This document shows, in pieces, positions 2,140-35,153 of a stretch of DNA of 36,708 bases. The position numbers and the translations under genes were made by a program. The notes under the pieces are model-generated. The model was given only the letters and a program-made list of their open reading frames with translations. It was not told the DNA's origin and ran no database searches. The stretch comes from a virus. The stretch spans positions 1 through 36,708 of the IMG/VR virus record IMGVR_UViG_3300028045_000006; one strand, 5' to 3'. Numbering within the stretch: position 1 is the stretch's first letter; every line of letters begins with the position of its first letter.

Positions 2140-2325
2140 TTAAATTGCAAGCTTCTCACTTGTGATGAATCTAAGAAGAACATTTCCTACTCCGTTAATT
2201 AGAGCAAGAATGTCTGTTGGAATGTAGTATACATTGCTTACAACTTGCACTATTCCAAGAGCGATAGTGATTAAGTTGAAGTAAAGCGTTTTACTCTTCC
2301 AGATAGACTTTGTGTTTTTTGCCAT
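2140..2325 (-). CDS. Holin-like small membrane protein (2 predicted TM segments)
   Basis: 61 aa with hydrophobic stretches LYFNLITIALGIVQVV and ILALINGVGNVLLRFI. It lies 2 nt downstream of the putative endolysin. Confidence 0.55.
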   Translation of the reverse strand: MAKNTKSIWKSKTLYFNLITIALGIVQVVSNVYYIPTDILALINGVGNVLLRFITSEKLAI

Positions 2326-2327
2326 GC

Positions 2328-3164
2328 TTATTTTGTTAAGTATTTGCTGTAGTTATGTAAAATTTGCACCATTTCTGAGCGTGTAACAGCTTTTTCGGGT
2401 AAAAACGACCCATCACCGTACCCATGGACTATTTCGTTGTCTTTTGCCCATTGTATTGCTTCTGCGAATGGACTTTCTTCAGTTACATCTTTGAAGATAT
2501 ATTTTATGTCTTTGTGGTCGTATAAGACATAGCAAGAGCCAAGCCATTTAACATCTTCATTCTTTACTAAAAATGTACCGTCATCAAACTTTCCCCAGGT
2601 ACTTCCCCAAGAATTAGATACAATCTTATAAAAAGGTTTATACCCAGTTATACATACAGCGTGTCCTCCAACTCTATCTCCATCATTGCCTCCCCAAATA
2701 CCTTCGTGTTTAGCCTTCTTGAAGTTGGTTTTGGTAACATCCATCGAGGTTACTATTGCAAAGCCCTTAGAGAGCCAGTAATTGACCTCGCTTTTTGGTA
2801 TACGAGCGTACCCGTCTATTTTATAGATTCCATCCGAAGTATGTAGTCCGTTCTTTACAATTGATTTAAGTGCAGTTTGAACGTAGTCTCCCTCTTTTAC
2901 CCTTGTGCCAAACTTCCCTTGCAACTCCCATCCTTTGTCGAATAAAGGATCAAGTTCTTTGTTGTGTTCTGCTTCGTTTGCAACTTGAGCTGAATGGTAT
3001 GCAGAGAAACAGGTACACATTGAAGATTTACCTTGATCTCCTTCCGTTAGTTCTAGCCTTACGCTTTCTGGCAAAGGAGCGTCGTCCTTGCCTAAAATCT
3101 GTTCAGCTATGTAATCACGAGAATCTGGGGCATCTAAAGCCCCAACAGGTCTTTCGTCATTCAT
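2328..3164 (-). CDS. Putative endolysin: papain-like (C1) cysteine peptidase with a C-terminal SLH domain
   Basis: C1 signatures: QGKSSMCTCFSAYH (Cys), GGHAVCITGY (His), SNSWGSTWG (Asn/Trp). The C-terminal FKDVTEESPFAEAIQWAKDNEIVHGYGDGSFLPEKAVTRSEMVQIL matches the SLH consensus F.DV...A..I.W....I..GY.DG.F.P....TR.E. Confidence 0.7.
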   Translation of the reverse strand: MNDERPVGALDAPDSRDYIAEQILGKDDAPLPESVRLELTEGDQGKSSMCTCFSAYHSAQVANEAEHNKELDPLFDKGWELQGKFGTRVKEGDYVQTALKSIVKNGLHTSDGIYKIDGYARIPKSEVNYWLSKGFAIVTSMDVTKTNFKKAKHEGIWGGNDGDRVGGHAVCITGYKPFYKIVSNSWGSTWGKFDDGTFLVKNEDVKWLGSCYVLYDHKDIKYIFKDVTEESPFAEAIQWAKDNEIVHGYGDGSFLPEKAVTRSEMVQILHNYSKYLTK

Positions 3165-3180
3165 ACGAATTGATTAAGAA

Positions 3181-3411
3181 TTATTTCTTAGCTTTCTTTT
3201 TCTTAGGCTTCTTTTCTTCCTTGACCTTGTTTGCAGCTTTAATCTTAGCTGCTAGTTTAGATTGGTCAACCGTCTCCTCTTCCTTGAGAGACGTCTTCTC
3301 GAAAGAAACTGCTCCTTCAATCTTTTCGTGCAATTCAGGATTGAATCGGAAATCTTTTATACAAAGTTCCTTTCCAGTTTCCTTGCACTTTACTGTTAGT
3401 GGTTTCCACAT
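3181..3411 (-). CDS. Hypothetical protein with a poly-Lys tail (76 aa)
   Basis: ORF track; C-terminal KVKEEKKPKKKKAKK; leader taaccaatacact. Confidence 0.5.
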   Translation of the reverse strand: MWKPLTVKCKETGKELCIKDFRFNPELHEKIEGAVSFEKTSLKEEETVDQSKLAAKIKAANKVKEEKKPKKKKAKK

Positions 3412-3560
3412 AGTGTATTGGTTAATTGACTTATTAAGTTATATGTGTTAAGGTTTGAGTATGAGTTGTATCCTACCAATTATTTACATCTTGTTTATTA
3501 TCTTCGCTTTTTCCATTCATTGGGCGTTGGGCTTAATACTTATCGCTCTTTTGTTTGTTC

Positions 3561-5192
3561 CTAATCAGAATTAAGATCACTTTCTGTTAATCCTTGAAGC
3601 ATCAGGTAATCTCCAAATGTTTTTACTGGCTTGGCTGAATAAAATTCTAGGGCATTGCCAACTCTGTACAACGTTCTTCCTCCTATTGTTTTAATGGGCG
3701 TAGTTGCCATATCCCAAGCGCCAGACCAGAATGTTCCAAATCCTCCTTTGAATCTTCCTCCAGTTCTAGCCTTTACGCCTATTCCTTCTAATTGCTTAAG
3801 ATTAGCATAATCTCTATATTGAGCCTTTATGTTTGGATCTTTCAAAACTTCATAAATATCATTTCTTATCTCGTTAGCGAATTTATTTTTTACTTGTCTC
3901 CATCCACTTACTACATCTTTGCCTTTGAATATTTTCTGTGGTGTAAATTTATCTAATGAACTTTTTATACTTTGTGCATCTATGTAGGAAGCCGACGGGG
4001 TGTCTTTGTAATCTTCTTTTAAAACCTCTAATCCTTCTAGTAAATCAGCTCTTCTGGCAGGTTCTTTTTCTTTCATTATTTCCTTTTCTATCTTTTTGAA
4101 TTTAGAGGTGAAATCCATAGGTTTTTCTACAGACTTAAGTTCTGGTTCTATTTCCTTCTTCCATATTTCATTAGCCTGTTTCGCACTTTTAACGCCTATC
4201 CCTTTTTCTGTTCCGACTATGCCTTTTTTTAATGCCGATTCAGACGCGATATTAGGTTTTTCTTTAAGTATTCCAGCCTCATATTTTTGCATTAACTCAG
4301 CCTCTTTAGTACTAGGCTTGATTGCTGTCTCGTATAATTTCTCTCCAGCAGCTTTGATGCCTTGACCAACTGGTTCTACAACTGTTTCGGCAGCTTTTTT
4401 GCCTTTTTTTAATCCTAATCCCATAAGTCCAACGTCAACAGGAGCCATCCATTGAGCCTTGATGTCTTCATATTCTGGTGTGCCTTCAACGATACCAGCC
4501 TTTTCCAATCCATAATCAACTATATGACTATAAATTTCTCTAGGAACTGTTAATGGCAACCCGACCGTCCAAGCAGCAATCTCATTCCCGTAAGGCAAGT
4601 TGCTCAAAGTTCCACTAATCGGACTTAGAAGAGTTCCTATTGTTCCTTCTGCTATTTTCGACCAACCTGTGCCACTCTGCATAATCCCTTCTTCCGCATT
4701 TTCGTTTGTAGTTCCTTGATAAATGTCCTTAACGCCACTTCCTATAGTAGAAAGACCTTGTTTCGCTTGCCCAATAATATCTGGGCTTTCCTGGCTCATC
4801 ATCGTCTTTGCATCAGCTTCTGACAATCCTTTCGTTTCCATGATAAAATCAATCATCTGTTGTTTCTCTGGACTTGGTTTGGTCAGCGACTCTTGCGTAA
4901 TATCCATTACGGATTTCGTTACTTCTGGAGTGACTCCTGTTTGTGGAACATTTTGGATAGATTCCACTTGCGCTTGTTTTTCTTTCGCTGCATCTATTCC
5001 TGGTTGAAGCATTGGCATCAAAGAACTTGTGAAAGGAGCCTGCTCTTGCATATACGCCTTCTTGGTTTGTACCAAAGCAGCTTTAGCGTCTTCAAAGCTA
5101 GTTCCTTCAGCCTGCTTTGCCATCATAAAGTTATAATCTGACATGGACATATCGGCTGGTTTTTGCGGTTTTGTTTGTGTTGTAGGTATCAT
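3561..5192 (-). CDS. Large virion-associated protein (543 aa), possible internal or ejection protein
   Basis: Position next to the 917-aa CHAP protein at the distal end of the structural module. No diagnostic motif seen. Confidence 0.35.
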   Translation of the reverse strand: MIPTTQTKPQKPADMSMSDYNFMMAKQAEGTSFEDAKAALVQTKKAYMQEQAPFTSSLMPMLQPGIDAAKEKQAQVESIQNVPQTGVTPEVTKSVMDITQESLTKPSPEKQQMIDFIMETKGLSEADAKTMMSQESPDIIGQAKQGLSTIGSGVKDIYQGTTNENAEEGIMQSGTGWSKIAEGTIGTLLSPISGTLSNLPYGNEIAAWTVGLPLTVPREIYSHIVDYGLEKAGIVEGTPEYEDIKAQWMAPVDVGLMGLGLKKGKKAAETVVEPVGQGIKAAGEKLYETAIKPSTKEAELMQKYEAGILKEKPNIASESALKKGIVGTEKGIGVKSAKQANEIWKKEIEPELKSVEKPMDFTSKFKKIEKEIMKEKEPARRADLLEGLEVLKEDYKDTPSASYIDAQSIKSSLDKFTPQKIFKGKDVVSGWRQVKNKFANEIRNDIYEVLKDPNIKAQYRDYANLKQLEGIGVKARTGGRFKGGFGTFWSGAWDMATTPIKTIGGRTLYRVGNALEFYSAKPVKTFGDYLMLQGLTESDLNSD

Positions 5193-5202
5193 TATATTTT
5201 GG

Positions 5203-7956
5203 TTACCATTTAATTGAATCTATACTATCTGGAACATATTTACTGTCTTCCACCGACTTGTTGTAAAGGTCGAGGTCTGCTTGTTGTTGTTTTTCTTCGG
5301 GTGTCATAGGCACGTTCTCTTTAATTATTGAATCTGGGTCAATTCCTGCGTCTATTAAGGCTTGTTTCTTTTCTGGATCAATAATAGTTTGAGCATATTC
5401 CTTCCCCATTGTAGACTTGTAAGAATACCTGGCTGCCGTAATCTTAGAGGACAGGAATTCAGACGCTGTATTCAATATTCCTTCAAATTGTTGTTCTGAA
5501 AACTGTAATCCGAGTAGTCTCTTCTGATTCTCTATTTCAGATTCAGAAGGAGCAGCTCCAGTCCCTTTCCATACGGCTGCTATTTCGGTTGCAAGTTGTT
5601 CTAATCCGAATTGGAGATTAACAATCTCTGTATTACCACTTTCCGCACTCCACCAGTTGGACAGTTTATTCAGTTCTTGTATGTCGTCAGGAGTTAAATT
5701 TTGGGTCATCTTTTTAACGTCTGCCAAATGCCCCAAAGCAGTGTTGATAGATAACTTGTTTTTACCGACAGAACTCTCAGTTGAATCCCATTTCTTTCTA
5801 AACTCATACCTAATCTTGTTTGTGTTTTCACTAAAATCAGGATCGACACTCTGTGCTTGCTGTAGTATTTTCTGCCTAGCCTTAGAACCTTCCATTCCTC
5901 TACTTGCCATTAAGTCTGCTAACAGTACGTCACCGTTCAGTAGTTGTTTTATATTGCTTTGGTCGTCAGAGGACAAAGCCGAAAATGCCCCTTGTTCCTT
6001 TGGGGTTAAACCTTCCCAGAAATCTGGGTAAGCTTCTTCTGGGTTAGTGCCACCACTAGGTCTGCCGAACTTCATACCGTCTGTTGACATATCGTGTGTG
6101 CCTATTTTCCCAGATTCAACATAATTAGCATCTTTAACCGTAACCGTACCCCCATCATCACTAACTGAAACAACGAATCCTGCATGACCAACATTGTCTC
6201 CATAAGGTGAAACGAATATGTCTCCAGCCTGTGGGCTGTCTACTGAAATAGACTGTATTGCGTTTATTTTAGAGTCGTAATCATCACCCATCGTTAATCC
6301 AGTATACCTATTCACGAACTGCGCACATTGTATACTTCCAGTCTTACCATTCCATGAGTCTATAGCTGGTTCTCCTGTTGTTGGATCTATTGGCGTTCCA
6401 TCTGGAACAGACAATGCGTCATTTACAGTTCCCCACGCCCCCTGAAAGCCACCACCTTCGCCTTCAGGCGTATACACAACTTTTGGTGGAGTTTTCCCAG
6501 TAGGATCAGTTTGCAACCACCTACCATCGTCCATCTCCTGATATTGGAAATTAGGATTGGCCCTCTTGAGTTCTTTGAATTTCTCTTGGTCAGTATCAGA
6601 TAATGCGCTGTAGAACTCCCATTCTTGTACTTGAGAAGGCTTACCAATATATTTAATGTCCTCTCTTAACTTCTCCGCTTGTGCTAGTTTGTAATCACGT
6701 TCAGCTTCATCCTTGGTTGCTAAGGCTTCAGCCTCCAACTTAATAGCTGATTGCAATGCTAAAGCTTCAGGCATGCTTAAATTTGTGTTCTGAATCATGT
6801 TGCTTAAATCTGCCTCTGTAAGGTTGACTATTGATGCTCCCATAGCTTCCATGTTGGCAACTGTTGTTTCTGTTACCGTATTAACAGTCTCAGCCATCTT
6901 CATTGATTGCTCTGCAAATGCTGTTTCGGCATCTATTTGATCAATTGCTGCTTGTTGGATTTGTCCGTCTGCTTGAGCTATAGCTGCTTTGTATTTAGCA
7001 GCAGAGTCCCAGTCTTCCATCTCCTGCGCACGTTTCAAACTCTTTATTGCTTGGTTTCTTTGTCCTTCAGCTTTTTGTCGTTGTAATTTTATGATTCCTA
7101 ACTTCCTGTCTACGTTCTTTTTGAATACACTTATTACGCCCTTAGCTCCTCCTTTAATTTCTCCTGTTTCTGGATCCATAACGCCTTCACTCACAACACC
7201 TTCTCTTCCTGGAGACAATGCTGCTGTTACAGAAGCTACACTTGACTCTAGAGATTCACCTGCTTGTGATGCTTGTTCTGATTCTAATTTACCAGCCAAT
7301 TCGTTTTGTTTCTCCAAATAAGATAATTCTCCTGCCTGTTTATCTTGTAAATAACCTTGAAAATATTCTTCTAAAGTAGAAAAAGGAGCATCTCCGAATC
7401 CTAGGTCTTCAAATTGAGTAGCCGTTCCAGCCGTATCACCACTTGCCGTAGCTTTCACATAATCATCATAATTTTTATAAGGATACCACGGATTGTCTTC
7501 TGTTCCTGAACCTAGTCCAACTACATTCCCTTGATCATCATAAGCGAATCCTGCTTGTCCTTGGTAAGGAGTGTCTTTAACAGGAAGTCCTTGATCACCA
7601 GCTAACTCTTTTCCTTTAGGAGAATCTGGACTATAGAGCTTACCTGTAGACGGATCTTTTATTTGCCATCCTCCTCCTGGTTTCTCTTGAAAGACTCCAG
7701 TACCTTGTGATTGTGGTTGATCAGGAGCTACCTCGGGAACCTCTGGCGTGGCTTGTTGACTCTTCCACTCTTGGACTCCTTTGGCGTAATCCTTAGAACT
7801 ACCATAGTCAGTTTTCTTTGGTGGTGTTACAGCAGGCTTCACGCTTTCTGTGTCAATTTTGATTGGTTCCACCTTCGGAATGTCTTTTTTTTGAGCAGCT
7901 AAAGCGGCCTTGTATTCAGCCCTAGATTTAAACTGATCTCTGTATAGTTTTGCCAT
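5203..7956 (-). CDS. Large virion protein (917 aa) with an internal CHAP peptidoglycan-hydrolase domain
   Basis: The spacing of SIQCAQFVNRY (Cys codon 6325..6327) and NVGHAGFVVSV (His codon 6184..6186) is typical of CHAP. Long coiled or low-complexity flanks resemble ejection proteins. Confidence 0.6.
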   Translation of the reverse strand: MAKLYRDQFKSRAEYKAALAAQKKDIPKVEPIKIDTESVKPAVTPPKKTDYGSSKDYAKGVQEWKSQQATPEVPEVAPDQPQSQGTGVFQEKPGGGWQIKDPSTGKLYSPDSPKGKELAGDQGLPVKDTPYQGQAGFAYDDQGNVVGLGSGTEDNPWYPYKNYDDYVKATASGDTAGTATQFEDLGFGDAPFSTLEEYFQGYLQDKQAGELSYLEKQNELAGKLESEQASQAGESLESSVASVTAALSPGREGVVSEGVMDPETGEIKGGAKGVISVFKKNVDRKLGIIKLQRQKAEGQRNQAIKSLKRAQEMEDWDSAAKYKAAIAQADGQIQQAAIDQIDAETAFAEQSMKMAETVNTVTETTVANMEAMGASIVNLTEADLSNMIQNTNLSMPEALALQSAIKLEAEALATKDEAERDYKLAQAEKLREDIKYIGKPSQVQEWEFYSALSDTDQEKFKELKRANPNFQYQEMDDGRWLQTDPTGKTPPKVVYTPEGEGGGFQGAWGTVNDALSVPDGTPIDPTTGEPAIDSWNGKTGSIQCAQFVNRYTGLTMGDDYDSKINAIQSISVDSPQAGDIFVSPYGDNVGHAGFVVSVSDDGGTVTVKDANYVESGKIGTHDMSTDGMKFGRPSGGTNPEEAYPDFWEGLTPKEQGAFSALSSDDQSNIKQLLNGDVLLADLMASRGMEGSKARQKILQQAQSVDPDFSENTNKIRYEFRKKWDSTESSVGKNKLSINTALGHLADVKKMTQNLTPDDIQELNKLSNWWSAESGNTEIVNLQFGLEQLATEIAAVWKGTGAAPSESEIENQKRLLGLQFSEQQFEGILNTASEFLSSKITAARYSYKSTMGKEYAQTIIDPEKKQALIDAGIDPDSIIKENVPMTPEEKQQQADLDLYNKSVEDSKYVPDSIDSIKW

Positions 7957-10021: not shown

Positions 10022-11596
10022 TTATTGTTTAATCATTTTGCGTCTCCTGATTGGAGCTTTAACTTGTGACTCTAACGACACCCAATTCACAGCGTGTGGG
10101 AGCTTGTCACTACAAGTTATATGTAAAATTACTCTTTGGAAATTTCTTATAAAAGGTCTACATCCGTCGAAACTCTCTACTAGATTACTGTAGTCAATGT
10201 CACCTCCCCATCCAGAAGTCCCCCAAGCTGCTGTTCCCCATCCATCTTCTCCTAGTTTAGACCTTTGAGCTGTCCATAAAAACCTTAGTTTGTCATTAAC
10301 AGGCTTCCCCGTCACATCATATATGTCGAATCTTACACTAATTTCTGTGCTAGGACTCAAGTAACCTTGAACATAACATCCTTTTAAGAATTGTCTCGTG
10401 AACAAATCCCCTAGTTTTAGTTCTTGCCTAAACTCTGTTCCTATAAGTTGCCCGTCATCATCAAATCCTTGGAATAACTCGTAAACTTTAGTCGAAGTAC
10501 TACTACCTCCATAAACAACGCCATCGTCACTCATAAATCTGTTAATAGTCCATCCGCTAAACTCTACGAAACTCTTGTGGTCTACGTTATATGCAATCAC
10601 GTAATTGTTAGTCGAGGAATCCTTTGCACAAGTAATCAAAATAATCCTTCTTCTAGCATCGTAAACCATATCAGCATTAGAAAGATCAAGTCCATCAAAG
10701 AACTCTGCTCCTAGTAAAATACTCACATTAGCCTCTTGATCGCTTTGAGGAAGATCCATCGAACCTATTTGTACTAATTGCCATAATCCTGATTCGTTGA
10801 CATAGAAAATACCTTCTGTTGTACTCTCTGACGCTCTACTACCTCCAGAGTCTACTCTATACATTGTAGTTATATCTACCTTGCTAATCGTACCACTAGA
10901 GTCTATTTGATCTATTCTAAATGCCCATTTACCGTCATCAGCTAAAGCGAATATATCTGGACCGAAAGCGTGAATTGACCTGACTGTTTGACCATTTCTG
11001 TAAGAAACAATCCCTGCACCTGTAGCTGTAGTATCTACTGTCCAACCGTCAAAAGGTGGATCGCTTCCATCGTCTACTTCCGAATAGTATATTGAATCAT
11101 TTACCGCACAATACAACCTGTTTCCAACCACTCTTAAATAAGTAGCTACAGCAGGACTTGCCACTACATGAGCTTCTGTCAAGGTGTCGTCTATTCTCCA
11201 AATGCCGTTTATGCCGTTAGAAACAAAGAAGTAACTACCATATCTCGCTCCAAAGAATCCAAGATTTGCAGTAAAGTCAGTTTTAATCGGTGTAATTGTG
11301 TCTGTCGATTTAGTATAAGCCGAAACTGTAGTCGCATAACCAAAGATGTAAATATCATCTGTCCATTTCTCTAACATAGTCACAGGATCAGTACCTGCTA
11401 CCTCGAATATCTTCGACAAACCTCCTCTCTTTTCGAGTCTTCCTTCTGCTGTTACTAGGTAATTCTTAATAACCTGAGCGAACTCTGGATTTAATAATTG
11501 AGGTAAGTCTCTAATATTCTCTCCTTTAGAACCCATTAGAGTAGTCGCACTCACTGGCGAACCCTTATAACCTTTAACATTTATTGGCGTGTACAT
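10022..11596 (-). CDS. Tail structural protein (524 aa), nozzle or tubular-protein-B-like by position
   Basis: Gene order only: it follows a ~200-aa adaptor-sized gene, as in short-tailed phages. Confidence 0.3.
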   Translation of the reverse strand: MYTPINVKGYKGSPVSATTLMGSKGENIRDLPQLLNPEFAQVIKNYLVTAEGRLEKRGGLSKIFEVAGTDPVTMLEKWTDDIYIFGYATTVSAYTKSTDTITPIKTDFTANLGFFGARYGSYFFVSNGINGIWRIDDTLTEAHVVASPAVATYLRVVGNRLYCAVNDSIYYSEVDDGSDPPFDGWTVDTTATGAGIVSYRNGQTVRSIHAFGPDIFALADDGKWAFRIDQIDSSGTISKVDITTMYRVDSGGSRASESTTEGIFYVNESGLWQLVQIGSMDLPQSDQEANVSILLGAEFFDGLDLSNADMVYDARRRIILITCAKDSSTNNYVIAYNVDHKSFVEFSGWTINRFMSDDGVVYGGSSTSTKVYELFQGFDDDGQLIGTEFRQELKLGDLFTRQFLKGCYVQGYLSPSTEISVRFDIYDVTGKPVNDKLRFLWTAQRSKLGEDGWGTAAWGTSGWGGDIDYSNLVESFDGCRPFIRNFQRVILHITCSDKLPHAVNWVSLESQVKAPIRRRKMIKQ

Positions 11597-11599
11597 ATT

Positions 11600-12250
11600 T
11601 TAATATATTAGTGTTGAATCTGGTAAACTGTAAGCCATTGGCTCCTTTTTGAAATTCCTTGCTAGTTCGTCCATAATCCTCACAAACCTAGCGTCTGCGA
11701 AACTCTCTGCTCCTATGTCTTCATCCCATTGGTCATACAAAACGTCTACAGCCTTAACAATATACTCTAAGAAGTCGTCTGGGATGATTTCTGCACCACT
11801 CACGCTCGTATCTAGTGTAAAATAGTCCGTAGAGGCGTCTATCGTCGTTATTTCAGGAATATACCGTAGTCGGTACGTTTCTGAGCTTTCAATGCCTGTA
11901 AAGACGACATTTGTGCCTTGTATGTAATACCCTTTGCCTTTTGAGCCGAAAGGAAGTCTTGCCAATCTAACTTCGGTATTATCTCCTTCTGTATCTACAT
12001 AATAGAAACCACATTCTTTTTCTTCTATGTCTCTGAAGTCTGCTGGTAAAGCTTGTGTACTAGGATTAGTACTTACTGAATAAGTTGTATCCTGATCAAT
12101 GTACCTTTCTGGATCAATTCCTTTTAACTTCCTGTAGGCAGTCTTGTTGATGAAGTCTGTCCATTCCCAAAAAGTTGCTAAAGGAACGTCTGTAAGGTCA
12201 CGTTTTAGACGATTATATGCGTCGTATGCTGATTGTGCGGTGATTGCCAT
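11600..12250 (-). CDS. Virion protein (216 aa), adaptor or tubular-protein-A-like by position
   Basis: Gene order and size only. Confidence 0.3.
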   Translation of the reverse strand: MAITAQSAYDAYNRLKRDLTDVPLATFWEWTDFINKTAYRKLKGIDPERYIDQDTTYSVSTNPSTQALPADFRDIEEKECGFYYVDTEGDNTEVRLARLPFGSKGKGYYIQGTNVVFTGIESSETYRLRYIPEITTIDASTDYFTLDTSVSGAEIIPDDFLEYIVKAVDVLYDQWDEDIGAESFADARFVRIMDELARNFKKEPMAYSLPDSTLIY

Positions 12251-12539: not shown

Positions 12540-14243
12540 TTATTGGATTATTGGGCTAAATTTGAAGTCACGGTACTTACCCCCTGCTGCTGTTGACCAA
12601 GCGAACGACACACTAGAATCAGTATGAGGAGCGGCATCTGCTACTGCGTACCCTAGTGGTGTTTGAGTGTAAGTCTGCCCACCATCTGTTGAGTGGTACA
12701 TTACCCAAGTTGAACCATTACGGGTCATCTTAATTCTATACCAAGTGTTTAAAGAGAAAGTCCCACTAGATTGTTGCAAAAGTGTTGTGCCAGAAGTGTC
12801 TCTATATAATTCAAACTTCTCCGTACTAGCAAAGTTGAAGTAATACGAATTAGTGTCAGTTCCCAAAGTCCCAACAATATCAGACATTAACACGAAAACA
12901 GCCGAACCTGCGTCTGCTGTCTTATATACGTCAAATTCCCAAGTCCCATAGGCTTGTTGCATCGGTATTGATACTATTCCAGCACTTACGCAAGTTATTT
13001 GCTTCGTTCCATCTCCATTACCCGTATCATCTACCTGCCAAGTCCCACTCTCTATATCCCAACCCGTATTCTCCAAGAAGTTTGACGTGACGTTGCCTAC
13101 AGATTCGTTCCACCCTTTACCATCAGCTATGTAAACTGGGTCGGAATTAGGTATTTCTTGTACAGTTATGTCATCCCAAGCCGTATATCCTGATGTTTGT
13201 CCAGAATGATATAATAAAAAATCTTTAGCAGAATTATCCCAAGTCTTAACAAAATCAAAATACTGCCAGTCAGTCGATAATGTTCCAGTCCACAAAGTTG
13301 TTGTGAAGTCATTTATCTGTGGTGTCCATGTACCATCACTTTTCGCCCAACCTCTAAATCTGTAGGTCTTGCCAACCTCTACTGTATCATTCACTCTTGC
13401 CCCTGGTCCAGCCGTACCATTATAAGATACCTTCAAATACTGACTACCTGAATGTGGTGTATCTGTTTCCTTTGCTAAACTAGCATTGTTGAACACAACA
13501 TAGTCCGCCACGCCTACAGCTTCCATATCACCATCAGGCATTAGGTTTCTTGCTGGGTCGCTTAACTGTTTAATATCAACTCTGTCGTAATGTGCTTCTT
13601 GTAACCCTTCTTCGTATAATTGAGAGGCTTCTGCACCTGTAAACTCTACCCCTTTCCAAACAATAACATCTTGAACACTTCCATTAAGCCATTGTGAGCC
13701 TCCATCATTTTCTACTCCTAATCCAATTTTTGCATTAGCATAATCGTCATAAGTGTTATTTGCTGTTGCTACGAATATCCCATCCACATATAAATTAAAA
13801 TCAGCCGTAGCTCTAGCATAGGTGAGTGTCACAAACACCCAGTTTTTAGCTGATAATACCGATGTCCCTGTAGCAGTAGCGGTTCCTCCTCCATCTCCTA
13901 TCCTAACACTTATATTCCCACTACTGGTGTAAAACCACCACCCCTCGTTTACTGACAATCTTCCGACCAGCGTTCTTATGGTTGCATCGTTTTCCTCTTG
14001 ATAACACCAGAAGCTTATAGAAAAGTCAAAGCCAGACGTATCAAAAACAGCATTATAAGGTACTTGAATTTCTGTGTCTGTCCCGTTAAGCTTTGGCACC
14101 CTTCCTCTTTTAGTATTCTCCCAATATGTTGAACCTGCATTTAAAGCTGCATCATTCCCATTCCCCGAAAGGTCGGCTAAACTACCATCTTTTAACCAGT
14201 TACCAACTATATTCGCTAGGTATTTGTCCTTAATTTTTGTCAT
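12540..14243 (-). CDS. Receptor-binding protein with LamG/ConA-like, CBM4_9-like and a further jelly-roll domain (567 aa)
   Basis: LSGNGNDAAL...LNGTDTEIQVP...FSISFWCY...LYVDG has the LamG_3 pattern. The middle segment NLMPDGDMEA...GKTYRFRGWAKSDG is CBM4_9-like. Confidence 0.55.
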   Translation of the reverse strand: MTKIKDKYLANIVGNWLKDGSLADLSGNGNDAALNAGSTYWENTKRGRVPKLNGTDTEIQVPYNAVFDTSGFDFSISFWCYQEENDATIRTLVGRLSVNEGWWFYTSSGNISVRIGDGGGTATATGTSVLSAKNWVFVTLTYARATADFNLYVDGIFVATANNTYDDYANAKIGLGVENDGGSQWLNGSVQDVIVWKGVEFTGAEASQLYEEGLQEAHYDRVDIKQLSDPARNLMPDGDMEAVGVADYVVFNNASLAKETDTPHSGSQYLKVSYNGTAGPGARVNDTVEVGKTYRFRGWAKSDGTWTPQINDFTTTLWTGTLSTDWQYFDFVKTWDNSAKDFLLYHSGQTSGYTAWDDITVQEIPNSDPVYIADGKGWNESVGNVTSNFLENTGWDIESGTWQVDDTGNGDGTKQITCVSAGIVSIPMQQAYGTWEFDVYKTADAGSAVFVLMSDIVGTLGTDTNSYYFNFASTEKFELYRDTSGTTLLQQSSGTFSLNTWYRIKMTRNGSTWVMYHSTDGGQTYTQTPLGYAVADAAPHTDSSVSFAWSTAAGGKYRDFKFSPIIQ

Positions 14244-14245
14244 AT

Positions 14246-15625
14246 TTATAAGTTAAAATTTCTAAACATTAAATCGTGCAACCATTTAGCTTGTGTTTCA
14301 GTTACCTCATAAGGGAACACAGTCGGAAACTTCAATCCTCCACCAAAATTCAATCCACCATAAGAAGCTTCCCCTATCCACATGCCTGATGTATTCACTA
14401 TGCTTCCAGTAAACCCAGATAATCCATCGTTTGTCTGTGCTTGCTTCTCTCTATCCACATAAAAACTGATACCTGCTTCTGTCTCGCTTCCGTCATAAGC
14501 AACAGTCGCACTATGCCACATACCATCATTCCATGCAGTATCAGTATGTGCTCTTAAACCTGTCACAGTTCCATTCTCGTAAGCCCTATACTCAATCAAG
14601 CCACTGGCACTAAAATTAACAGCCACACCTTTATAAGTAGCCGCTGGGTCAGATTTACTAAACAATACCGAAACAGCTGTCTTGGTTGTTCTGAATAAGA
14701 AAGAAAAACTGTGAGGAGAATCTTTCTCAAAGACATCATTGAATTGTGCACTCTGTTGTATCTCAAGGTGGTCATTTGTACCGTCTAACTCTATTCCGTT
14801 ATTAGGTAATAAGGTAGGTTCATCAACTCCTGCACCCGTTCCCCAAAAGCACTGGTCAGTAGCTACGTGTCCTAAATTTGGAGTAACCTCATTAGCTCCG
14901 TCATCATAATGGGTTCTCAAAGGTAGCCATATCTCTGCACTTTCAGGCTTAACTTCTTTGAAAGTCAGCTGTGTGTATTTGTCTAAAACCTCACCCTCGG
15001 TAAGCTCTTTATCATAAATACTAACTCCTCTAAATTGTCCATCCGCATAACTACCAGAGTATCTCCCAAACCAAACATCATGCCCCTGTTTCTCCATTGC
15101 GACATAACCTCCTTGACTATTACCTCCACTCACATCATCAACTCGGCTTCCATTAAGATATATTTTCAATCCTGCCTCCGTTGACGAACCGTCGTAAGTT
15201 GCCACAAGGTGAATCATCTGCCCCTCATAAGAAGTCAACGCTGTGTTATAAGCCCGTCCTATACGACAATCTGCCACACTCTCATCATGGCATTGGACAA
15301 AGGCTTTATCCGTACCAGCCACGTAAAACAACCATTCTGCATCGACATTATTCACACCTTTTGACGCAATTATAAAAGACGTAGCGTCAGTCATAATCCC
15401 GAAAAACTCTATTGAAAACGGACTGTCAGTAGCCCCATCTCCAAAGCTATATTTGTATTCATCCGCTGGTGTCGCATATTGAGAAGTGCCATTCAACGTC
15501 ATTCCATTATTAACAACAGGGGCATCTGTTAAAACAACTCCATTGTCAGCAACATACTGGTTGTTTATGAACTGTTCTCGAAAAACCGCGTCTTCTGCTG
15601 GTATGTTTGGGTATGTTATTCCCAT
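14246..15625 (-). CDS. Receptor-binding protein with two tandem LamG/ConA-like domains (459 aa)
   Basis: Two copies of the pattern LNGTSQYA...FSIEFF...HLVATYDG...LKIYLNG and LDGTNDHLEI...FSFLF...HSATVAYDG...ISFYVD. Confidence 0.55.
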   Translation of the reverse strand: MGITYPNIPAEDAVFREQFINNQYVADNGVVLTDAPVVNNGMTLNGTSQYATPADEYKYSFGDGATDSPFSIEFFGIMTDATSFIIASKGVNNVDAEWLFYVAGTDKAFVQCHDESVADCRIGRAYNTALTSYEGQMIHLVATYDGSSTEAGLKIYLNGSRVDDVSGGNSQGGYVAMEKQGHDVWFGRYSGSYADGQFRGVSIYDKELTEGEVLDKYTQLTFKEVKPESAEIWLPLRTHYDDGANEVTPNLGHVATDQCFWGTGAGVDEPTLLPNNGIELDGTNDHLEIQQSAQFNDVFEKDSPHSFSFLFRTTKTAVSVLFSKSDPAATYKGVAVNFSASGLIEYRAYENGTVTGLRAHTDTAWNDGMWHSATVAYDGSETEAGISFYVDREKQAQTNDGLSGFTGSIVNTSGMWIGEASYGGLNFGGGLKFPTVFPYEVTETQAKWLHDLMFRNFNL

Positions 15626-15946: not shown

Positions 15947-15964
15947 TTTAAATTGGTTAAATTA

Positions 15965-16756: not shown

Positions 16757-16774
16757 AATTTATTTGGTTAATTA

Positions 16775-19985: not shown

Positions 19986-21152
19986 TTATTGTACGTTGTG
20001 TGTGATGTTCACAAGTCTGTAAGCGTCTCTGAAGAATACCGCATCACCGAATAGAACGTGAGTTAGGTAGTTCTTAGCGAGCTGTTTAGGTTCTTCACGG
20101 ATGTACAGTTCAGGCATCATTTGGATTGCCAAAGAGATTGCTCCTTGTCTTCCAGTTAGCATTGTCCCTGTTTCTGTAGCGAATACATTTGTGCCAGTTG
20201 TGAATGTCTCAGCTGGAGCCATCTTTCCGTAACAAGTCAAAGTACAGTCGTGTGTAGACCATGCACCTGCAGTAAGCTGTGCATTCTGATACTTACGTCG
20301 TCCTTCTGCGGCTAAATCGATATAATCGTTAGCTGAAGGTGGAGTCGTTCCGTTAATAGCTGTTAAGAAAATTGCCTTGAAGTCAGCCAAACCGTCACCG
20401 ATATTGATTTCACCTGCTGCCGCAGCAGTACCATCAGTTACACATGTCCAAGTTTCACCCAGAAGCGTGAATGTATCTGTGTTGCTAGGTTGTGTGTCAA
20501 CTGTCAACACTACACTTGTTGGTAGGTTGTTTGAAACATAACAGTTGAATCCAGCAGCTTTACCACGGAATTGGTTTCTTAGTTGTGTGTCTGCTTCTTG
20601 GAATCCGTTAGCTACGAATGTCTCTGTTAGGAGTGTAGCTGTGTGAGCATCGATTACAGCGAACAAAGGCGCATCAGTTGCGTTTTGTCTGTAAAGTTCT
20701 GCGTAAGATTCATTAAGTCTAGAAAGGACTGTTGAGGTAGTCAAAGAACCACCTGCAACCGTGTTGTTAGCACCTGCTACACCTGTAGCGAATACTGTTT
20801 GGTCGATGTTGTTTCTTAGTTGGAATGCTGATTGGTAAGCCAATTCTGCACCGTAGTCAGCCAAAGCTTGTTTCTCTTGTACTGGATCAAGGATGAAGTT
20901 AGCAATTTTAGATTGATCAACAGTCAAAGAACTCTGTACTGCTGAAAGATCGTCCATTGTAACGTCTGTACCTTGCGTGTAGTCTTGTACACGAACATCA
21001 CTTACATACGGAAAGTTTACTTGGTCTCCACTTGAAAGGTATGCTTCACATTTAGTGTTACATATCTCTTTCGCTACAAGCATCTTGTTCAGATAATCTT
21101 GTACCATAGGTTTCCATACCTCTGGATTTAAAGCTGTAATAGCGTTTGCCAT
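19986..21152 (-). CDS. Major capsid protein (HK97 fold, P22-coat-like family)
   Basis: 388 aa. The N-terminal A.T.LNPEVWKP.V..YL......A..I.N......SGD.V.FPY...V.V.DY pattern is typical of this capsid family. It follows the scaffold gene. Confidence 0.75.
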   Translation of the reverse strand: MANAITALNPEVWKPMVQDYLNKMLVAKEICNTKCEAYLSSGDQVNFPYVSDVRVQDYTQGTDVTMDDLSAVQSSLTVDQSKIANFILDPVQEKQALADYGAELAYQSAFQLRNNIDQTVFATGVAGANNTVAGGSLTTSTVLSRLNESYAELYRQNATDAPLFAVIDAHTATLLTETFVANGFQEADTQLRNQFRGKAAGFNCYVSNNLPTSVVLTVDTQPSNTDTFTLLGETWTCVTDGTAAAAGEINIGDGLADFKAIFLTAINGTTPPSANDYIDLAAEGRRKYQNAQLTAGAWSTHDCTLTCYGKMAPAETFTTGTNVFATETGTMLTGRQGAISLAIQMMPELYIREEPKQLAKNYLTHVLFGDAVFFRDAYRLVNITHNVQ

Positions 21153-22219: not shown

Positions 22220-24004
22220 TTATAGTGCTGGTTCAGATTGTGGTTGCCTAACATTTATCTTTGCTCTGTCTGTTCCTGTCACACCTCCTTCCTCTGGCGC
22301 AGCTCCTGGCGCTCCTTGTGGCATCTCTGGTGCTGGTGGATTGAATTCTTCCATCGTTACATCCCTATCGTTTAGTTGTGCTAGTTGGTATGTAAGTTTA
22401 GCGTGTGCTGGTGTTCCTGGCCTTGTGAACTGTAGTGTTTTTGAAATCTGTGCTTGTTGTACGATGTTTGAAGGTATAGCTCCTGTTCTTGCGTTTACCT
22501 TTACAAAGTAGTTGTGTTTGCTGATCTCATCCTTCACCATCCCTAAAGTAACTCCATCTGGTCTGATCATATCCCCTTCACCTAAATCAATCTTAGTTGT
22601 TAGATTCAAAGCAGTCTTGTCCTTCTTGCCTACAAACTTCTTAATACAATCCAATGTAACCTCTACCAAGTGTTTAGTCTCACTAGCGTTGTATTCCATA
22701 ATCTGTTTAACGAATCCGTTAGCACTCTCCTCTTCCGCTAGTACCTGAGTTGCTGTTACGTTAGCTCCTCTTTCTGCTTCGTCTAAGAAAATTCCCATAC
22801 GTTTAATCTCTCTATCTAGTATGTCGTATATAGCTTGCCATTCGTTGTATAAATTCTGTGTTAATAGACTCTGGGCGTTTGCTTGACTTGCGTTAGGATT
22901 GTTAGGATCGTACTCCATTGCAACGTATCCTTTCTTTCCTGCTGCTCTCATTTCGTGTGCTAGTTGAAGTTTGTTAAAGAATTTACTAGCTTCACCTTGT
23001 GGTACGTTCATCAAAGTAACTGGGTAAACGTTATCTTCTATGTGTCCTACTTCCATGTTCATCAACCTCTGAGAAACTAAAGCTAAATCATAAAGCATTG
23101 AACCAATACCGTGATTATAGAATCCTTTAGCTGAAGGCATACATATAAACTGACTAATAGGAATGTAAGGCTCACCTCCTTTAGTAAACGGATATTCATC
23201 ACCATTGTACTCCTCCAATACTGTACAAGATGTTCCTGCGAATACTGTGTAGTTCTTATTGTTGATGTCGTAGAAGTATGCAATCTCTGTCTTTGTCTCT
23301 AACTCATGTTCTTGTTCGTATTGTCTTTCAAGTTCCTTCTCTGAATACAGACTTCGGGGAATCTCTCCTGCTCCTCCTTTCTTCTTAAGCTCTGGGAATA
23401 ATTGAACAGCCTCAGCCCATGGATAACTAAAGATTACACAACACTTATTGACTTCTCCTGATCCAGTAGGGCTTCTCATCATGGTTGCATAAGCATCAAC
23501 GTATACATTTGAATTACTTACACTTCTATACTTCAAAGGACTATTAGTGTCTTTCTCTGGATTAGAACCTATTTGAATGAATCCATCCCCGTACATCAAT
23601 AGTTTAAAGAAAGCACCATTCTTATCTCTCAAAGACGCTGCGTAACCTCCTCTGTCCATTACTGTTGATACTCCCATTGTTGTGATCTTCTCCATTACTT
23701 CAGGTCTTCCTGTTCCATGAATACTAAAGTCTAAAGGCTTCATTCTACCTGCTGTACGCCACATTGCTTGGTATAACTTCTTTGAAGCGATCTTCTTCGG
23801 CCCGACTGGACTCTTAACTTCAAAACCTTTCTCGAACATCTCCTGAATCAATTCGTTCTTAGAGTCTTGTTCGTTCTTTAGAGTGTAGTTAGTTGAAAGA
23901 AGCTTAAGTGCAGTCTGCACAGCTTTGTTGTCTCTTCCATCTTCTACGTTAAGATTAACTTCAGGGTCGAGACCTGGATTTGATCCAGTATATTGATTAG
24001 CCAT
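22220..24004 (-). CDS. Portal protein
   Basis: 594 aa, located downstream of terL and upstream of scaffold and capsid. Call rests on size and synteny; Pro/Gly/Ala-rich C-terminal tail. Confidence 0.65.
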   Translation of the reverse strand: MANQYTGSNPGLDPEVNLNVEDGRDNKAVQTALKLLSTNYTLKNEQDSKNELIQEMFEKGFEVKSPVGPKKIASKKLYQAMWRTAGRMKPLDFSIHGTGRPEVMEKITTMGVSTVMDRGGYAASLRDKNGAFFKLLMYGDGFIQIGSNPEKDTNSPLKYRSVSNSNVYVDAYATMMRSPTGSGEVNKCCVIFSYPWAEAVQLFPELKKKGGAGEIPRSLYSEKELERQYEQEHELETKTEIAYFYDINNKNYTVFAGTSCTVLEEYNGDEYPFTKGGEPYIPISQFICMPSAKGFYNHGIGSMLYDLALVSQRLMNMEVGHIEDNVYPVTLMNVPQGEASKFFNKLQLAHEMRAAGKKGYVAMEYDPNNPNASQANAQSLLTQNLYNEWQAIYDILDREIKRMGIFLDEAERGANVTATQVLAEEESANGFVKQIMEYNASETKHLVEVTLDCIKKFVGKKDKTALNLTTKIDLGEGDMIRPDGVTLGMVKDEISKHNYFVKVNARTGAIPSNIVQQAQISKTLQFTRPGTPAHAKLTYQLAQLNDRDVTMEEFNPPAPEMPQGAPGAAPEEGGVTGTDRAKINVRQPQSEPAL

Positions 24005-24483: not shown

Positions 24484-25785
24484 CTATTTCTTAAGGATTA
24501 AGTCTTTAGCTGCTTTAGCGTATTCTTTGTATTCTTTGGCTGGAATTCCTATCTCGTGCTTTCTTATACCTGCTTCGTGGTCAGCAAAACCCATAGCTTT
24601 GTTCTCATAGTCACTGAACGGTGTTGAGTCTTTGACAGAGATTGTAGTCAATGCGTACCTAACTGCATCCATTGCATGATCGAAGCCTGGTTCTGGTACA
24701 TTTAACACCTTCCCATTCTTGTCTGTTAGCCACAAGTAGTTCCTATACTCTTTAATCACGTTAATTGACCTCTTAGTCATGAATATCCTTTGGTCTTGTA
24801 CTAACTGTATTCCTTGATTAACTGAGTCTCTACCTTTCTTACATCCGATTATGTTAGCTCCATAGGCTCTTATCTCATCAATAGACTTAGGCTCTGCTGA
24901 GTCAGCTACTGTTAGAGTGTTGTTCTCGTCGATCAATAGAATGTCAGCTATCTGCTTATTACTCAATCCTTTCCTAAATGTTATCTCGTCTATGATGTAA
25001 GCTCCGTTCCACTTGTAGATGTCTACTATAGATGTTGGGTCGTTACTGTATCCGAAATCCATACCTTTCCTAATCAACTTAGCTTCATCTGGTATCTTAT
25101 CAAGTATCTTCCAATCCTTATATATCTTACCTTCTACCTCACCCAGCATTCCTAGTCCATACACTTGCCACCATCCTTTCCTGTTCCTACGCTGTTCAAT
25201 TGATTCCACAATCTTCTCGTCTAATGCTTCGTTGTCCTTATAAGTAAGCGTACATTCTTCTACATCATCTCTATCATCTCTAACATCAGAGTAATACCAA
25301 AACTCATTAGTCGGATTCCAATCTAAGTACACAAACTCCTTAGTCCTTACCTCAAGCTGCTCAAATGCGTCAAAAGGCACGTTGTTAGCCTCGTTGATGA
25401 ACAAACGATCTCTACGTGCTCCTCTGAGCTTATCGGGGCTGTCAGCTGAAAAGAATTCGATTCTACTTCCTGTCTCAAATGTGTACGTGTGATTGGTCTT
25501 GTCCCATAGTTTGTCTTTGTAATAGCCTTGCTTCTGCATTATGTTTAAGAAATCTCTCTCAGCTCCTCTACGGAGATGTGGGAAAGACTCTGATACAACA
25601 CTTGTTAAAGTTATAGCCTTATCACTCTGTGCTCTAGCTATTAAATAAATAAGAATAGAGATTGTTTTAGAAGCTGAAGTACCACCAGGCACTGCTCTAA
25701 TCCTTTGCTCCATCTTCATTATCTTGTCCGTCGCTGTTGTTATTACAAACATGAGGTAGTATTGGTGATGGTAACTTCTCTCCAT
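24484..25785 (-). CDS. terL: Terminase large subunit (Terminase_3 / PBSX-like); true start probably at internal Met 25752, 25719 or 25713
   Basis: Walker A VPGGTSASKT and Walker B DRLFINEA. Nuclease motifs GMDFGYSNDPTSIV, DSAEPKSIDEIR and HAMDAVRYAL. Confidence 0.9.
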   Translation of the reverse strand: MERSYHHQYYLMFVITTATDKIMKMEQRIRAVPGGTSASKTISILIYLIARAQSDKAITLTSVVSESFPHLRRGAERDFLNIMQKQGYYKDKLWDKTNHTYTFETGSRIEFFSADSPDKLRGARRDRLFINEANNVPFDAFEQLEVRTKEFVYLDWNPTNEFWYYSDVRDDRDDVEECTLTYKDNEALDEKIVESIEQRRNRKGWWQVYGLGMLGEVEGKIYKDWKILDKIPDEAKLIRKGMDFGYSNDPTSIVDIYKWNGAYIIDEITFRKGLSNKQIADILLIDENNTLTVADSAEPKSIDEIRAYGANIIGCKKGRDSVNQGIQLVQDQRIFMTKRSINVIKEYRNYLWLTDKNGKVLNVPEPGFDHAMDAVRYALTTISVKDSTPFSDYENKAMGFADHEAGIRKHEIGIPAKEYKEYAKAAKDLILKK

Positions 25786-31724: not shown

Positions 31725-31931
31725 ATGAAATACTACCAGCTCGATACGGACAAGCTAATGGCAGAGGAGAGCCTAGACTCAAGCGCAATTGTTTCCTGCT
31801 TTAAACAGCTGTACAATTCGGTTAGAGCAATTTTCTATTTAATCAAAGTTATGCAAATAGAAATTGACGAAGGGCGTTATGACAGGATTTCAGAAGATGG
31901 CAAAAAGTTTTTTAAAGAATCACATAAATAA
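31725..31931 (+). CDS. Hypothetical protein (68 aa)
   Basis: ORF track. Confidence 0.5.
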   Translation: MKYYQLDTDKLMAEESLDSSAIVSCFKQLYNSVRAIFYLIKVMQIEIDEGRYDRISEDGKKFFKESHK

Positions 31932-31932
31932 C

Positions 31933-33999: not shown

Positions 34000-34009
34000 C
34001 CAAAAAAAC

Positions 34010-34412: not shown

Positions 34413-35153
34413 ATGAAATATCTAAGAAAAGAACTCGCAATCGTAATGATTGGCGCAATAGTCGGGATGTTCCTATACATCACGTTTGAACCAGTTTCAA
34501 AAGCAGACGCACTGCAAGCAATCTACAACACAACCCTGGAAGAATTTAACTATGTGAACGGAATCTACAAAGAAAAGGAAGCTGAGATACAAACATACGA
34601 AGCTCGCTTAGAATCACTCAAAAATGAGCTAGAATCGCTGTCTAAACTACTTGCAAACTTAAAAGCAGACGTAGACGCAGAAAAAGACGAACTCTTTTCT
34701 AAGGGCGAAATAACGCCAAAAACAACAGAGCTTGAAAGGTGGCAGTATGTAGCTGATTTAAGAGAACCTTTGGCTAAGTATTGGAAAGGTACTGTTTTGG
34801 AAGGAAAGGAAGACGATCTTCTGTTGTGGTGCAAAGCTAGTACAGTTGCCAGAGTTTGCGTGAAGGTTATTGCAGCTCAGACGCAGATTGAAACTTCGTT
34901 TGGCACTACTGGAGTTGGTAAGACGCACAAGAATCTAACTGGTATCAGAGATTCAGGAAAGTGGAGAACTTACGAACAGTATCATTACAGCTTAAAGGAT
35001 AGTGTTGAACTGTTTATAGCTGGAAACTATCAAGATTACTTCACAATACATGGTTGGGAAAAAGGGCTTAGGTTATATTTAAACAGATGGGGGACACTAC
35101 ATGTAATTGATATAAAACATATATGCGAAAATGTATTAACAAAACAACCATGA
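34413..35153 (+). CDS. Signal-anchored coiled-coil protein with a C-terminal GH73-like (glucosaminidase/FlgJ-type) domain
   Basis: N-terminal TM segment LAIVMIGAIVGMFLYITF. IAAQTQIETSFGTTG...KNLTGIRD...WRTYEQYHYSLKDSVELF parallels the GH73 blocks AQA.lESgwG, nNlFGik and f..Y.s...S..dy. The candidate catalytic Glu codon is at 34890..34892. Confidence 0.55.
   Translation: MKYLRKELAIVMIGAIVGMFLYITFEPVSKADALQAIYNTTLEEFNYVNGIYKEKEAEIQTYEARLESLKNELESLSKLLANLKADVDAEKDELFSKGEITPKTTELERWQYVADLREPLAKYWKGTVLEGKEDDLLLWCKASTVARVCVKVIAAQTQIETSFGTTGVGKTHKNLTGIRDSGKWRTYEQYHYSLKDSVELFIAGNYQDYFTIHGWEKGLRLYLNRWGTLHVIDIKHICENVLTKQP

Follow-up and report, generated by a model that had tools for sequence, protein, structure and literature searches.

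A papain-fold (C1) peptidase bearing a single S-layer-homology motif and encoded beside a holin-like gene is a candidate lysis enzyme of a marine phage

The stretch of DNA analyzed here is the IMG/VR virus record IMGVR_UViG_3300028045_000006, which is 36,708 nt in length and is referred to below as the window. A minus-strand gene within it encodes a protein of 278 amino acids (aa) that consists of a papain-like (C1) peptidase domain followed by one S-layer-homology (SLH) motif, and the next gene on the same strand encodes a 61 aa holin-like protein. The first-pass annotation of this DNA had described the C1-SLH gene as the last large gene of the late arm, lying 2 nt from a gene for a 61 aa protein with two transmembrane (TM) segments. 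Both the list of open reading frames (ORFs) and the DNA agree with this description: the C1-SLH gene is the final large gene of the minus-strand late arm, and the spacer between the two genes, as read on the DNA, consists of positions 2326–2327 only.

Several comparisons place the catalytic domain of the 278 aa protein in the papain family, as had been proposed from its motifs at the first reading. The three motifs in question are present in the translation, viz. KSSMCTCFSAYH (aa 46–57), GGHAVCITGY (aa 166–175), and SNSWGSTWG (aa 183–191). The Pfam Peptidase_C1 model (PF00112) matches aa 107–202 with 27.1 bits against a curated cut-off of 20.7 (E = 5.5e-6); this match spans only the C-terminal half of the model, and the homology to papain over its full length rests on a profile alignment made with hhalign (96% probability). 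In this alignment Gln44, Cys50, His168, Asn184, and Trp186 are paired with Q19, C25, H159, N175, and W177 of papain, the spacing within the Gln/Cys and His/Asn pairs is the same as in papain (Gln 6 residues before Cys; His and Asn 16 apart), and the NSWG segments are aligned. A sequence search of the PDB matched ervatamin, procerain, papain, and ficin, with E values down to 2e-6, and the C-terminus matched an SLH protein. PHROGs returned a "peptidase" family and nothing further, a search of NCBIfam gave no meaningful match, and the precomputed Pfam annotation of most close relatives lists the SLH motif only. Some relatives weakly match C39_2 in addition to C1, and no match to CHAP or NlpC/P60 was obtained.

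The catalytic residues are strongly conserved in an alignment of 54 sequences that includes relatives down to 26% identity, with Gln44 present in 54/54, Cys50 in 53/54, His168 in 54/54, and Asn184 in 52/54. The same alignment served as input for an AlphaFold2 model of the 278 aa protein (mean pLDDT 93.8, pTM 0.84), in which a helix (aa 50–67) begins at Cys50. In a Foldseek search with this model, C1A enzymes make up all of the top 50 PDB matches (E from 1e-12 to 8e-10; TM scores of 0.65–0.74, normalized to target length). The first of them is the bacterial enzyme xylellain (3OIS; E = 1e-12 over 270 columns), and mite allergens (Der f 1), papain, procerain, and cathepsins K and S are found among the further matches; matches in the BFVD structure database include cathepsins of giant viruses and insect viruses. 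The protein is thus predicted with high confidence to adopt the two-lobed C1A papain fold, and the structure prediction and the alignment of the Gln/Cys/His/Asn set both uphold the first-pass assignment. The other statements of that annotation that are amenable to computation held as well, and no result that it had named as a refutation was obtained.

The protein shares with C1A peptidases such as papain, cathepsins K and S, Der p 1, and xylellain the fold, the catalytic set with its spacing, and the NSWG segment, and it differs from them in a number of features. C1A enzymes are typically, though not universally, secreted zymogens with an I29 prodomain and conserved disulfides. In contrast, the 278 aa protein has neither a signal peptide nor a hydrophobic segment by hydropathy, no I29-type prodomain is matched by Pfam, and the disulfide cysteines of papain are absent. 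Its cysteines are C50, C52, C171, and C211, of which only the catalytic C50 lies among the 90%-conserved columns, and the residue that follows it is Thr, where papain-family enzymes have Trp. In place of the papain prodomain there is an extension of about 30 aa with a conserved P-D-x-R-D-Y/F motif (P13 and R16 each in 44/54 sequences, D17 in 51/54, and Y/F18 in 52/54), which is modeled with a pLDDT of about 90 at aa 11–30 and which recurs in very distant phage C1 proteins. The C-terminal SLH motif and the location in a phage lysis cassette further set the protein apart from the C1A enzymes.

The one clear SLH motif that the first-pass annotation had noted at the C-terminus is matched once by the Pfam SLH model (PF00395), above the curated cut-off (49.1 bits against 20.8; E = 5.5e-13; model positions 2–43 of 44). 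In the predicted structure, it comprises helices 234–242 and 262–277 joined by a loop, and it follows the last strand of the catalytic domain without a flexible linker. The closest solved sequence belongs to the SLH portion of OmpM1 from Veillonella parvula (8BZ2, 8BYM, 8BYS), where the sugar is contacted by a Trp together with a Gly and the TRAE motif supplies the Arg that pairs with the ketal-pyruvate (PMC10628300). The Gly corresponds to G248 (conserved in 47/54 sequences) and the Arg to Arg262 (51/54), within a TRSE sequence that departs from the TRAE consensus of the family. The position of the ligand-binding Trp aligns with Pro232 in a pairwise alignment, and in a few relatives (e.g., P0016 and L012) the Ser of FKDVTxxS is directly followed by a Trp. 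There is one SLH copy in the 278 aa protein, whereas the relative P0130, encoded on a phage-like contig, combines a C1 domain with three copies.

The 61 aa protein has a Lys-rich N-terminus and, by hydropathy, two hydrophobic stretches (aa 13–35 and 38–55). Its proximity to the peptidase gene is a feature that, in modified form, extends to other genomes. A word-indexed search with the 278 aa protein identified 35 homologues, all of them metagenomic and nearly all about 280 aa in length with both C1 and SLH, and an exhaustive search gave 27 clusters at E ≤ 1e-30, followed by a very large weaker tail driven by the SLH motif. The sources of these homologues include Saanich Inlet at 200 m, marine sediment, and contig DRHV01000182.1 of assembly GCA_011053035.1, and several of their contigs are 39–42 kb in length and probably represent near-complete genomes. 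In the close relatives and in relatives of 56% and 73% identity, the shared order is a large tail/ejection protein, the C1-SLH protein, a small ORF of 61, 75, or 66 aa, and a convergent early arm. In L014 the downstream partner is an 80 aa protein with several hydrophobic segments, and in L012 and L013 the partner is a 106 aa TM protein located upstream, the pair lying between the early genes and the terminase genes and not after the tail genes. The small partner proteins are mutually dissimilar in sequence and every one of them has at least one hydrophobic segment, so that the adjacency to a small membrane protein, which the first-pass annotation had reported for the window, is kept in the relatives. 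Since the enzyme is mobile and its membrane-protein neighbor is swapped, the pair behaves as a lysis cassette and not as a structural gene, and the comparison argues that the C1-SLH gene and its small membrane-protein gene may form a mobile lysis cassette. As is usual for endolysins, the gene lies beside a small membrane protein and its product has no export signal of its own.

Directly 5′ of the C1-SLH gene, on the minus strand (3181–3411), is a gene for a 76 aa protein that lacks hydrophobic segments and whose tail is rich in Lys (KKPKKKKAKK); in close relatives this position is occupied by an 82 aa gene. Scans for promoters and terminators around the C1-SLH/61 aa cassette gave matches at chance level only. 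A tblastn search of cultured phages with the C1-SLH protein returned one weak, unannotated match; the 594 aa protein taken as the portal (22220..24004) had no match among cultured phages, and the capsid had remote matches only, to phages of mixed hosts.

The late arm runs from the large terminase through the major head protein to two lectin-type fiber proteins, an SU10-type adaptor, and, at its end, a 917 aa protein with a CHAP domain, which together with a 543 aa protein lies ahead of the C1-SLH gene. The two adjacent proteins with Laminin_G_3 domains are likely, from these domains, to be glycan-recognizing receptor-binding fibers. At either end of the window, the plus strand carries genes of early type (ERF, Mom, YopX, and HNH). 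The Mom-family protein (31864–32637, plus strand; Pfam E = 1e-68) is about 47% identical to Mom, the DNA-modification protein of phage Mu, and such a gene would not be expected of this type of marine phage. The G+C content of the window is about 40% and no tRNA genes were found in it. The source is a tailed marine phage with a genome of about 40 kb, and the SU10-type adaptor in its late arm suggests that it is podovirus-like. The large terminases of three C1-SLH-bearing relatives (L012, 2081–4951; L013, 7458–10328; L016, 2916–5948), which are 956–1010 aa in length, appear to carry an intein-like insert that includes a segment of HNH-type endonuclease; when their translations are inspected by eye, a Cys opens the insert and HN followed by Ser closes it. 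The features of the window are summarized in Table 1.

Table 1. Positions of the C1-SLH gene, its parts, and other features of the window.
Feature	Position	Strand	Description
Holin-like gene	2140..2325	-	61 aa; 2 nt 3′ of the C1-SLH gene; starts with ATG
C1-peptidase/SLH gene	2328..3164	-	278 aa; includes TAA stop at 2328-2330
Single SLH motif	2370..2495	-	aa 224-265; TRSE form of the TRAE motif, Arg262; final helix to aa 277
Papain-fold (C1A-like) catalytic domain	2520..3074	-	about aa 31-215
Codons of the catalytic set	Gln44 3033-3035; Cys50 3015-3017; His168 2661-2663; Asn184 2613-2615	-	checked on the DNA
N-terminal extension	3075..3164	-	about aa 1-30; conserved P-D-x-R-D-Y/F motif; in place of the papain prodomain
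917 aa late protein	5203..7956	-	internal CHAP domain, aa 538-611, Pfam E 4e-10; also in close relatives
SU10-type adaptor	11600..12250	-	late arm
Two adjacent late proteins	12540-14243 and 14246-15625	-	Laminin_G_3 (concanavalin-like lectin) domains; one also CBM_4_9
Major head protein	19986..21152	-	late arm
Large terminase	24484..25785	-	late arm begins here
GH73-like protein	34413..35153	+	246 aa; TM helix aa 4-29, coiled coil aa 30-96, C-terminal glucosaminidase-like domain, Glu160
TTAACCAA-type sites (examples)	1235-1242, 1485-1492, 3418-3425, 15953-15960, 16764-16771, 33996-34003		upstream of genes

Two other proteins of the window are candidates for wall hydrolases. The first is the GH73-like protein, whose C-terminal domain matches Pfam PF01832 below its cut-off (28.3 bits against 30.2; E = 3e-6); the protein matches an endolysin family in PHROG (E = 1e-4) and has no meaningful match in NCBIfam. 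Its relatives have an invariant Glu (Glu160) within an IETxFG motif of their alignment, the domain is modeled with a pLDDT of about 90, and its top Foldseek matches (LytB, the glucosaminidase domain of a C. difficile endolysin, AtlA, FlgJ, and Auto) are all GH73 enzymes, with E values of 0.025–0.2. These weak but consistent matches suggest that the domain is a glucosaminidase. The gene belongs to the early arm, and its presence is conserved among close relatives; profile searches detected it together with the C1-SLH gene in L001, L002, and L034, and in relatives of the L007 type it was not detected up to 10 kb from the cassette. The layout of the protein resembles the stalk of an inner-membrane spanin bearing a wall hydrolase. 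The second candidate, the 917 aa CHAP protein, lies outside the lysis cassette and probably acts at entry, as a wall hydrolase associated with the virion or with ejection. A 524 aa protein (10022–11596) has a weak match to a PHROG family named "amidase."

The nature of the host bears on what the SLH motif could bind. When the 25 nt upstream of each start codon were scanned, none of 35 starts had a Shine-Dalgarno (SD)-like tetramer at SD distance, the sole tetramer of this kind lying 22 nt upstream of the large-terminase gene. The gene leaders are A/T-rich and G-poor, and many of them have TTAACCAA or a near variant of it 8–15 nt before the ATG. The exact octamer was counted 9 times, whereas 2.6 occurrences would be expected, and every copy lies on the coding strand. 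The best matches to the large terminase are from phages of Flavobacterium psychrophilum (45.7% identity, E = 4e-94). One Flavobacterium phage that shares this terminase, FpV9, has similar SD-less leaders of the TTAA/TAAAA type; its genome encodes a tail assembly chaperone, and no lysis homologue is visible in it. The leaders and the terminase together support a Bacteroidota-like host, the terminase similarity by itself being weak host evidence. A search with the SLH segment alone gave no host candidates, and the literature on SLH in Bacteroidota yielded nothing useful. A scan of genome collections returned one 3.3-kb contig binned as an uncultured gammaproteobacterium, which is too short to be trusted as host evidence.

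C1 domains are also present in the lysis genes of other phages. The weaker viral-contig matches to the 278 aa protein are C1 domains by Pfam and are located in recognizable lysis neighborhoods. In L023, a protein with C1 and a weak SH3_3 match is followed by a protein with M15 and PG_binding_1 and then by a TM protein. In L021 (high G+C; 4471–7383), a Peptidase_M15_4 protein is followed by TM proteins, a C1 protein without a binding domain, a protein with an N-terminal TM segment, and a lipobox-bearing lipoprotein; these last two resemble a spanin pair. In L027 (high G+C; 4590–6183), a Phage_lysozyme protein, an 80 aa TM protein, and a small lipoprotein precede a C1 protein without a binding domain. 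The layout of L021 and L027 is that of a full lysis cassette of the Gram-negative type, with its endolysin, holin-like TM proteins, and spanin-like genes (lipobox lipoproteins or TM-anchored proteins), to which a C1 protease is added. A tblastn search of cultured phages with the L021 C1 protein found Burkholderia phage FLC9, where the match is annotated as hypothetical, and Alicyclobacillus phage MMB025, where an annotated endolysin of 753 aa consists of Peptidase_C1, an Ig-like region, an Rv2525c-type glycoside hydrolase, and PG_binding_1. The C1 domain of MMB025 aligns with the family of the window protein at 96% probability (hhalign; E = 1.5e-9), and BFVD matches include C1 proteins of uncultured phages that bear peptidoglycan-binding or muramidase names. 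These sequence comparisons indicate that the C1 domain is a recurrent, uncharacterized part of phage lysis genes, rare and yet not unprecedented. Accordingly, the first-pass statement that a C1 domain is unusual for an endolysin stands in that no characterized C1 endolysin was found in the literature searched, which agrees with a published classification (PMC10318531), and has to be qualified in that C1 domains already occur in phage lysis genes. Mycobacteriophage LysA was considered as a C1 precedent and rejected, as the N-terminal domain of the D29 enzyme belongs to C40 (NlpC/P60) according to a preprint describing its crystal structure.

The explanation that we favor, with moderate confidence, is that the 278 aa protein is a holin-released, SLH-anchored cysteine peptidase lysin, viz. 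the soluble enzyme of a two-gene cassette. What the computation shows in support of this reading is the domain content, the fold, the conservation of the catalytic residues, the missing export signal, and a pairing with small membrane proteins that is conserved in relatives. The enzyme would be synthesized in the cytoplasm as a papain-fold cysteine peptidase that has neither a prodomain nor the disulfide cysteines of papain, and late in infection the 61 aa two-TM protein would open the inner membrane and give it access to the wall. The C-terminal SLH motif, probably as part of a trimer, would then dock on a wall polymer, which may be a pyruvylated secondary cell-wall polysaccharide or modified peptidoglycan. 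The Cys50/His168 dyad would cleave peptide bonds in the wall, most likely those of peptidoglycan stem peptides or cross-links, possibly in joint action with the membrane-anchored GH73-like enzyme, which would cleave the glycan strands.

A number of observations weigh against this reading. The term endolysin is applied to the protein by position only. In the literature searched, C1-family enzymes appear in lysis as annotated examples only, and none shown to cut peptidoglycan was found; the papain-like enzymes that are directed at the wall fall in the NlpC/P60-CHAP cluster (PMC10318531). The L021 and L027 cassettes already hold a canonical endolysin (Peptidase_M15_4 or Phage_lysozyme), and the C1 protein may serve another purpose there. 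The TM-anchored GH73-like protein is a second wall-hydrolase candidate, and the C1-SLH protein need not be the only or the main such enzyme. The 61 aa protein matched neither a holin family nor any other family in Pfam, PHROG, or NCBIfam. A lone SLH motif cannot by itself build the three-pronged binding unit, which takes three tandem copies or a homotrimer; the single-SLH proteins SlpA and OmpM1 form homotrimers (PMC10628300), as does a single-SLH endolysin that is described below. Lastly, a survey of 1093 genomes found SLH together with the pyruvyl transferase CsaB in most diderm Terrabacteria and "practically absent in the Gracilicutes" (preprint 10.1101/2021.05.31.446380). SLH ligands are thus not expected in Bacteroidota, and the tension between the SLH motif and the Bacteroidota-like translation signals, to which the first-pass annotation had drawn attention, is real.

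The closest characterized counterpart of the proposed lysin is LysBT1, the endolysin of Brevibacillus thermoruber prophage PBT1, whose SLH motif mediates cell binding and which forms trimers (PMC12285257). LysBT1 likewise consists of a catalytic domain followed by one C-terminal SLH with a TRAE-type motif. It differs in that it is a zinc N-acetylmuramoyl-L-alanine amidase and not a papain-fold cysteine peptidase, in that a flexible linker precedes its SLH motif, and in that its host is a Firmicute known to bear an S-layer, whereas no such host is assigned to the window. ORF0095 of phage MMB025 (PV686781.1; preprint 10.1101/2025.06.28.662109), the 753 aa protein described above, is similar in joining a homologous C1-like domain to a wall-binding module in a phage lysis gene, and is unlike the 278 aa protein in its extra Ig-like region and glycoside hydrolase and in having PG_binding_1 instead of SLH. 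The CHAP and NlpC/P60 endolysins of clan CA share a Cys-His papain-like core, often with a wall-binding domain, and phage enzymes of these two kinds cut peptidoglycan peptides or the amide bond (PMC10318531). They nevertheless belong to another family and to another cluster of the superfamily, and the true CHAP domain of this genome sits in a putative virion protein.

Among the alternatives, the one that survives best, although we consider it unlikely, is that the 278 aa protein is an accessory lysis protease that cuts wall-anchored proteins and not peptidoglycan, with the GH73-like enzyme as the true peptidoglycan hydrolase. Candidate targets would be outer-membrane tethers that are anchored by SLH, such as those of the OmpM/SlpA type, the protein of an S-layer, or some other protein bound to the wall, and the enzyme's own SLH motif would bring it to the wall polymer of these targets or allow co-assembly with them. 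The C1 enzyme would in this manner deal with the layer outside the wall, a step that is carried out by spanins or a disruptin in other phages. Characterized C1 enzymes act on proteins, which they degrade. Wall hydrolases of the superfamily belong to a different cluster (PMC10318531), and the occurrence of distant C1 homologues in the L021 and L027 cassettes beside canonical endolysin and spanin-like genes also speaks for an accessory protease. So do the retention of a separate GH73-like enzyme in the lineage of the window and the ORF list, in which no spanin-like gene is visible beside the cassette. A further point in its favor is that the closest solved SLH is that of OmpM1, an outer-membrane tether that likewise carries a single SLH on each chain. 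The OmpM/SlpA tethers of diderm Terrabacteria share with the 278 aa protein the sugar-binding Gly and the arginine of TRxE as well; they are, however, trimeric porins with a coiled-coil stalk and a β-barrel that are exported by the cell, whereas the protein described here is a predicted cytoplasmic phage enzyme with neither stalk nor barrel.

This alternative is weakened by the location of the GH73-like gene, which belongs to the early arm and is distant from the holin-like gene, by the weakness of its family and fold matches (Pfam under the cut-off; Foldseek E ≥ 0.025), and by the negative outcome of the search for it in L007-type relatives up to 10 kb from the cassette. In addition, MMB025 fuses C1 to muramidase-like and peptidoglycan-binding domains, which is the usual layout when both enzymes act on peptidoglycan, and no protein substrate has been identified. 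The wider proposal that the C1-SLH protein represents a new kind of lysis effector, in which an SLH-delivered protease sheds the outermost layer by cutting wall-anchored envelope proteins while the GH73-like enzyme digests the wall, seems to us doubtful; a role of this kind would explain the presence of C1 peptidases beside canonical endolysins in the cassettes of other phages. Baculovirus V-CATH is a viral C1A protease that breaks down host structures at the end of infection and works with a chitinase. The resemblance to the window, i.e., a virus-encoded C1A protease alongside a glycan-cutting enzyme, is a functional parallel only, as V-CATH belongs to a virus of eukaryotes, is a secreted proenzyme with a prodomain, and acts on proteins of host tissue and not on a bacterial wall.

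A role apart from lysis, viz. that of a virion-associated entry enzyme or of a protease that works in the cytoplasm in host takeover or in the processing of phage proteins, with the SLH motif as a leftover or an oligomerization module, would suit the position of the gene after the 917 aa CHAP protein and the 543 aa protein at the end of the tail/ejection block and the existence of viral C1 proteases with other roles (the giant-virus and insect-virus cathepsins in BFVD), but it is very improbable, as the gene in L012 and L013 lies away from the tail genes and still beside a TM protein, the ligand-binding arginine of the SLH motif is kept in 51/54 relatives, the late arm already has a CHAP domain suited to entry, and there is no context of a maturation protease (an adjacent portal or scaffold gene).

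Part of what is proposed for the C1-SLH protein is known, as a modular lysin beside a holin-type gene is conventional in its overall logic. What appears from the sequence to be new is the combination of a C1A-fold catalytic domain, for which there is no biochemical precedent in lysis, with a single SLH anchor, for which there is one characterized precedent (LysBT1, 2025); no tested phage lysis enzyme has such a pairing, which we infer here for the 278 aa protein. LysBT1 is the only characterized SLH-bearing endolysin, and the C1-SLH protein would be the second case of a single-SLH anchor. Should the enzyme prove active on walls, the papain family (C1), known so far for protein degradation, would join the catalytic domains of phage lysis and would supply enzyme engineering with a new module whose bond preference is different. 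The single-SLH anchor could be used to probe uncultured marine bacteria for pyruvylated wall polymers. The co-occurrence of an SLH motif with Bacteroidota-like signals would mean either that the SD-less host lineage has SLH ligands or that SLH binds something else in envelopes of the Gracilicutes type. That C1 domains recur in the lysis cassettes of phages, in some cases next to a complete set of endolysin, holin, and spanin, suggests a lysis function that has not been studied so far.

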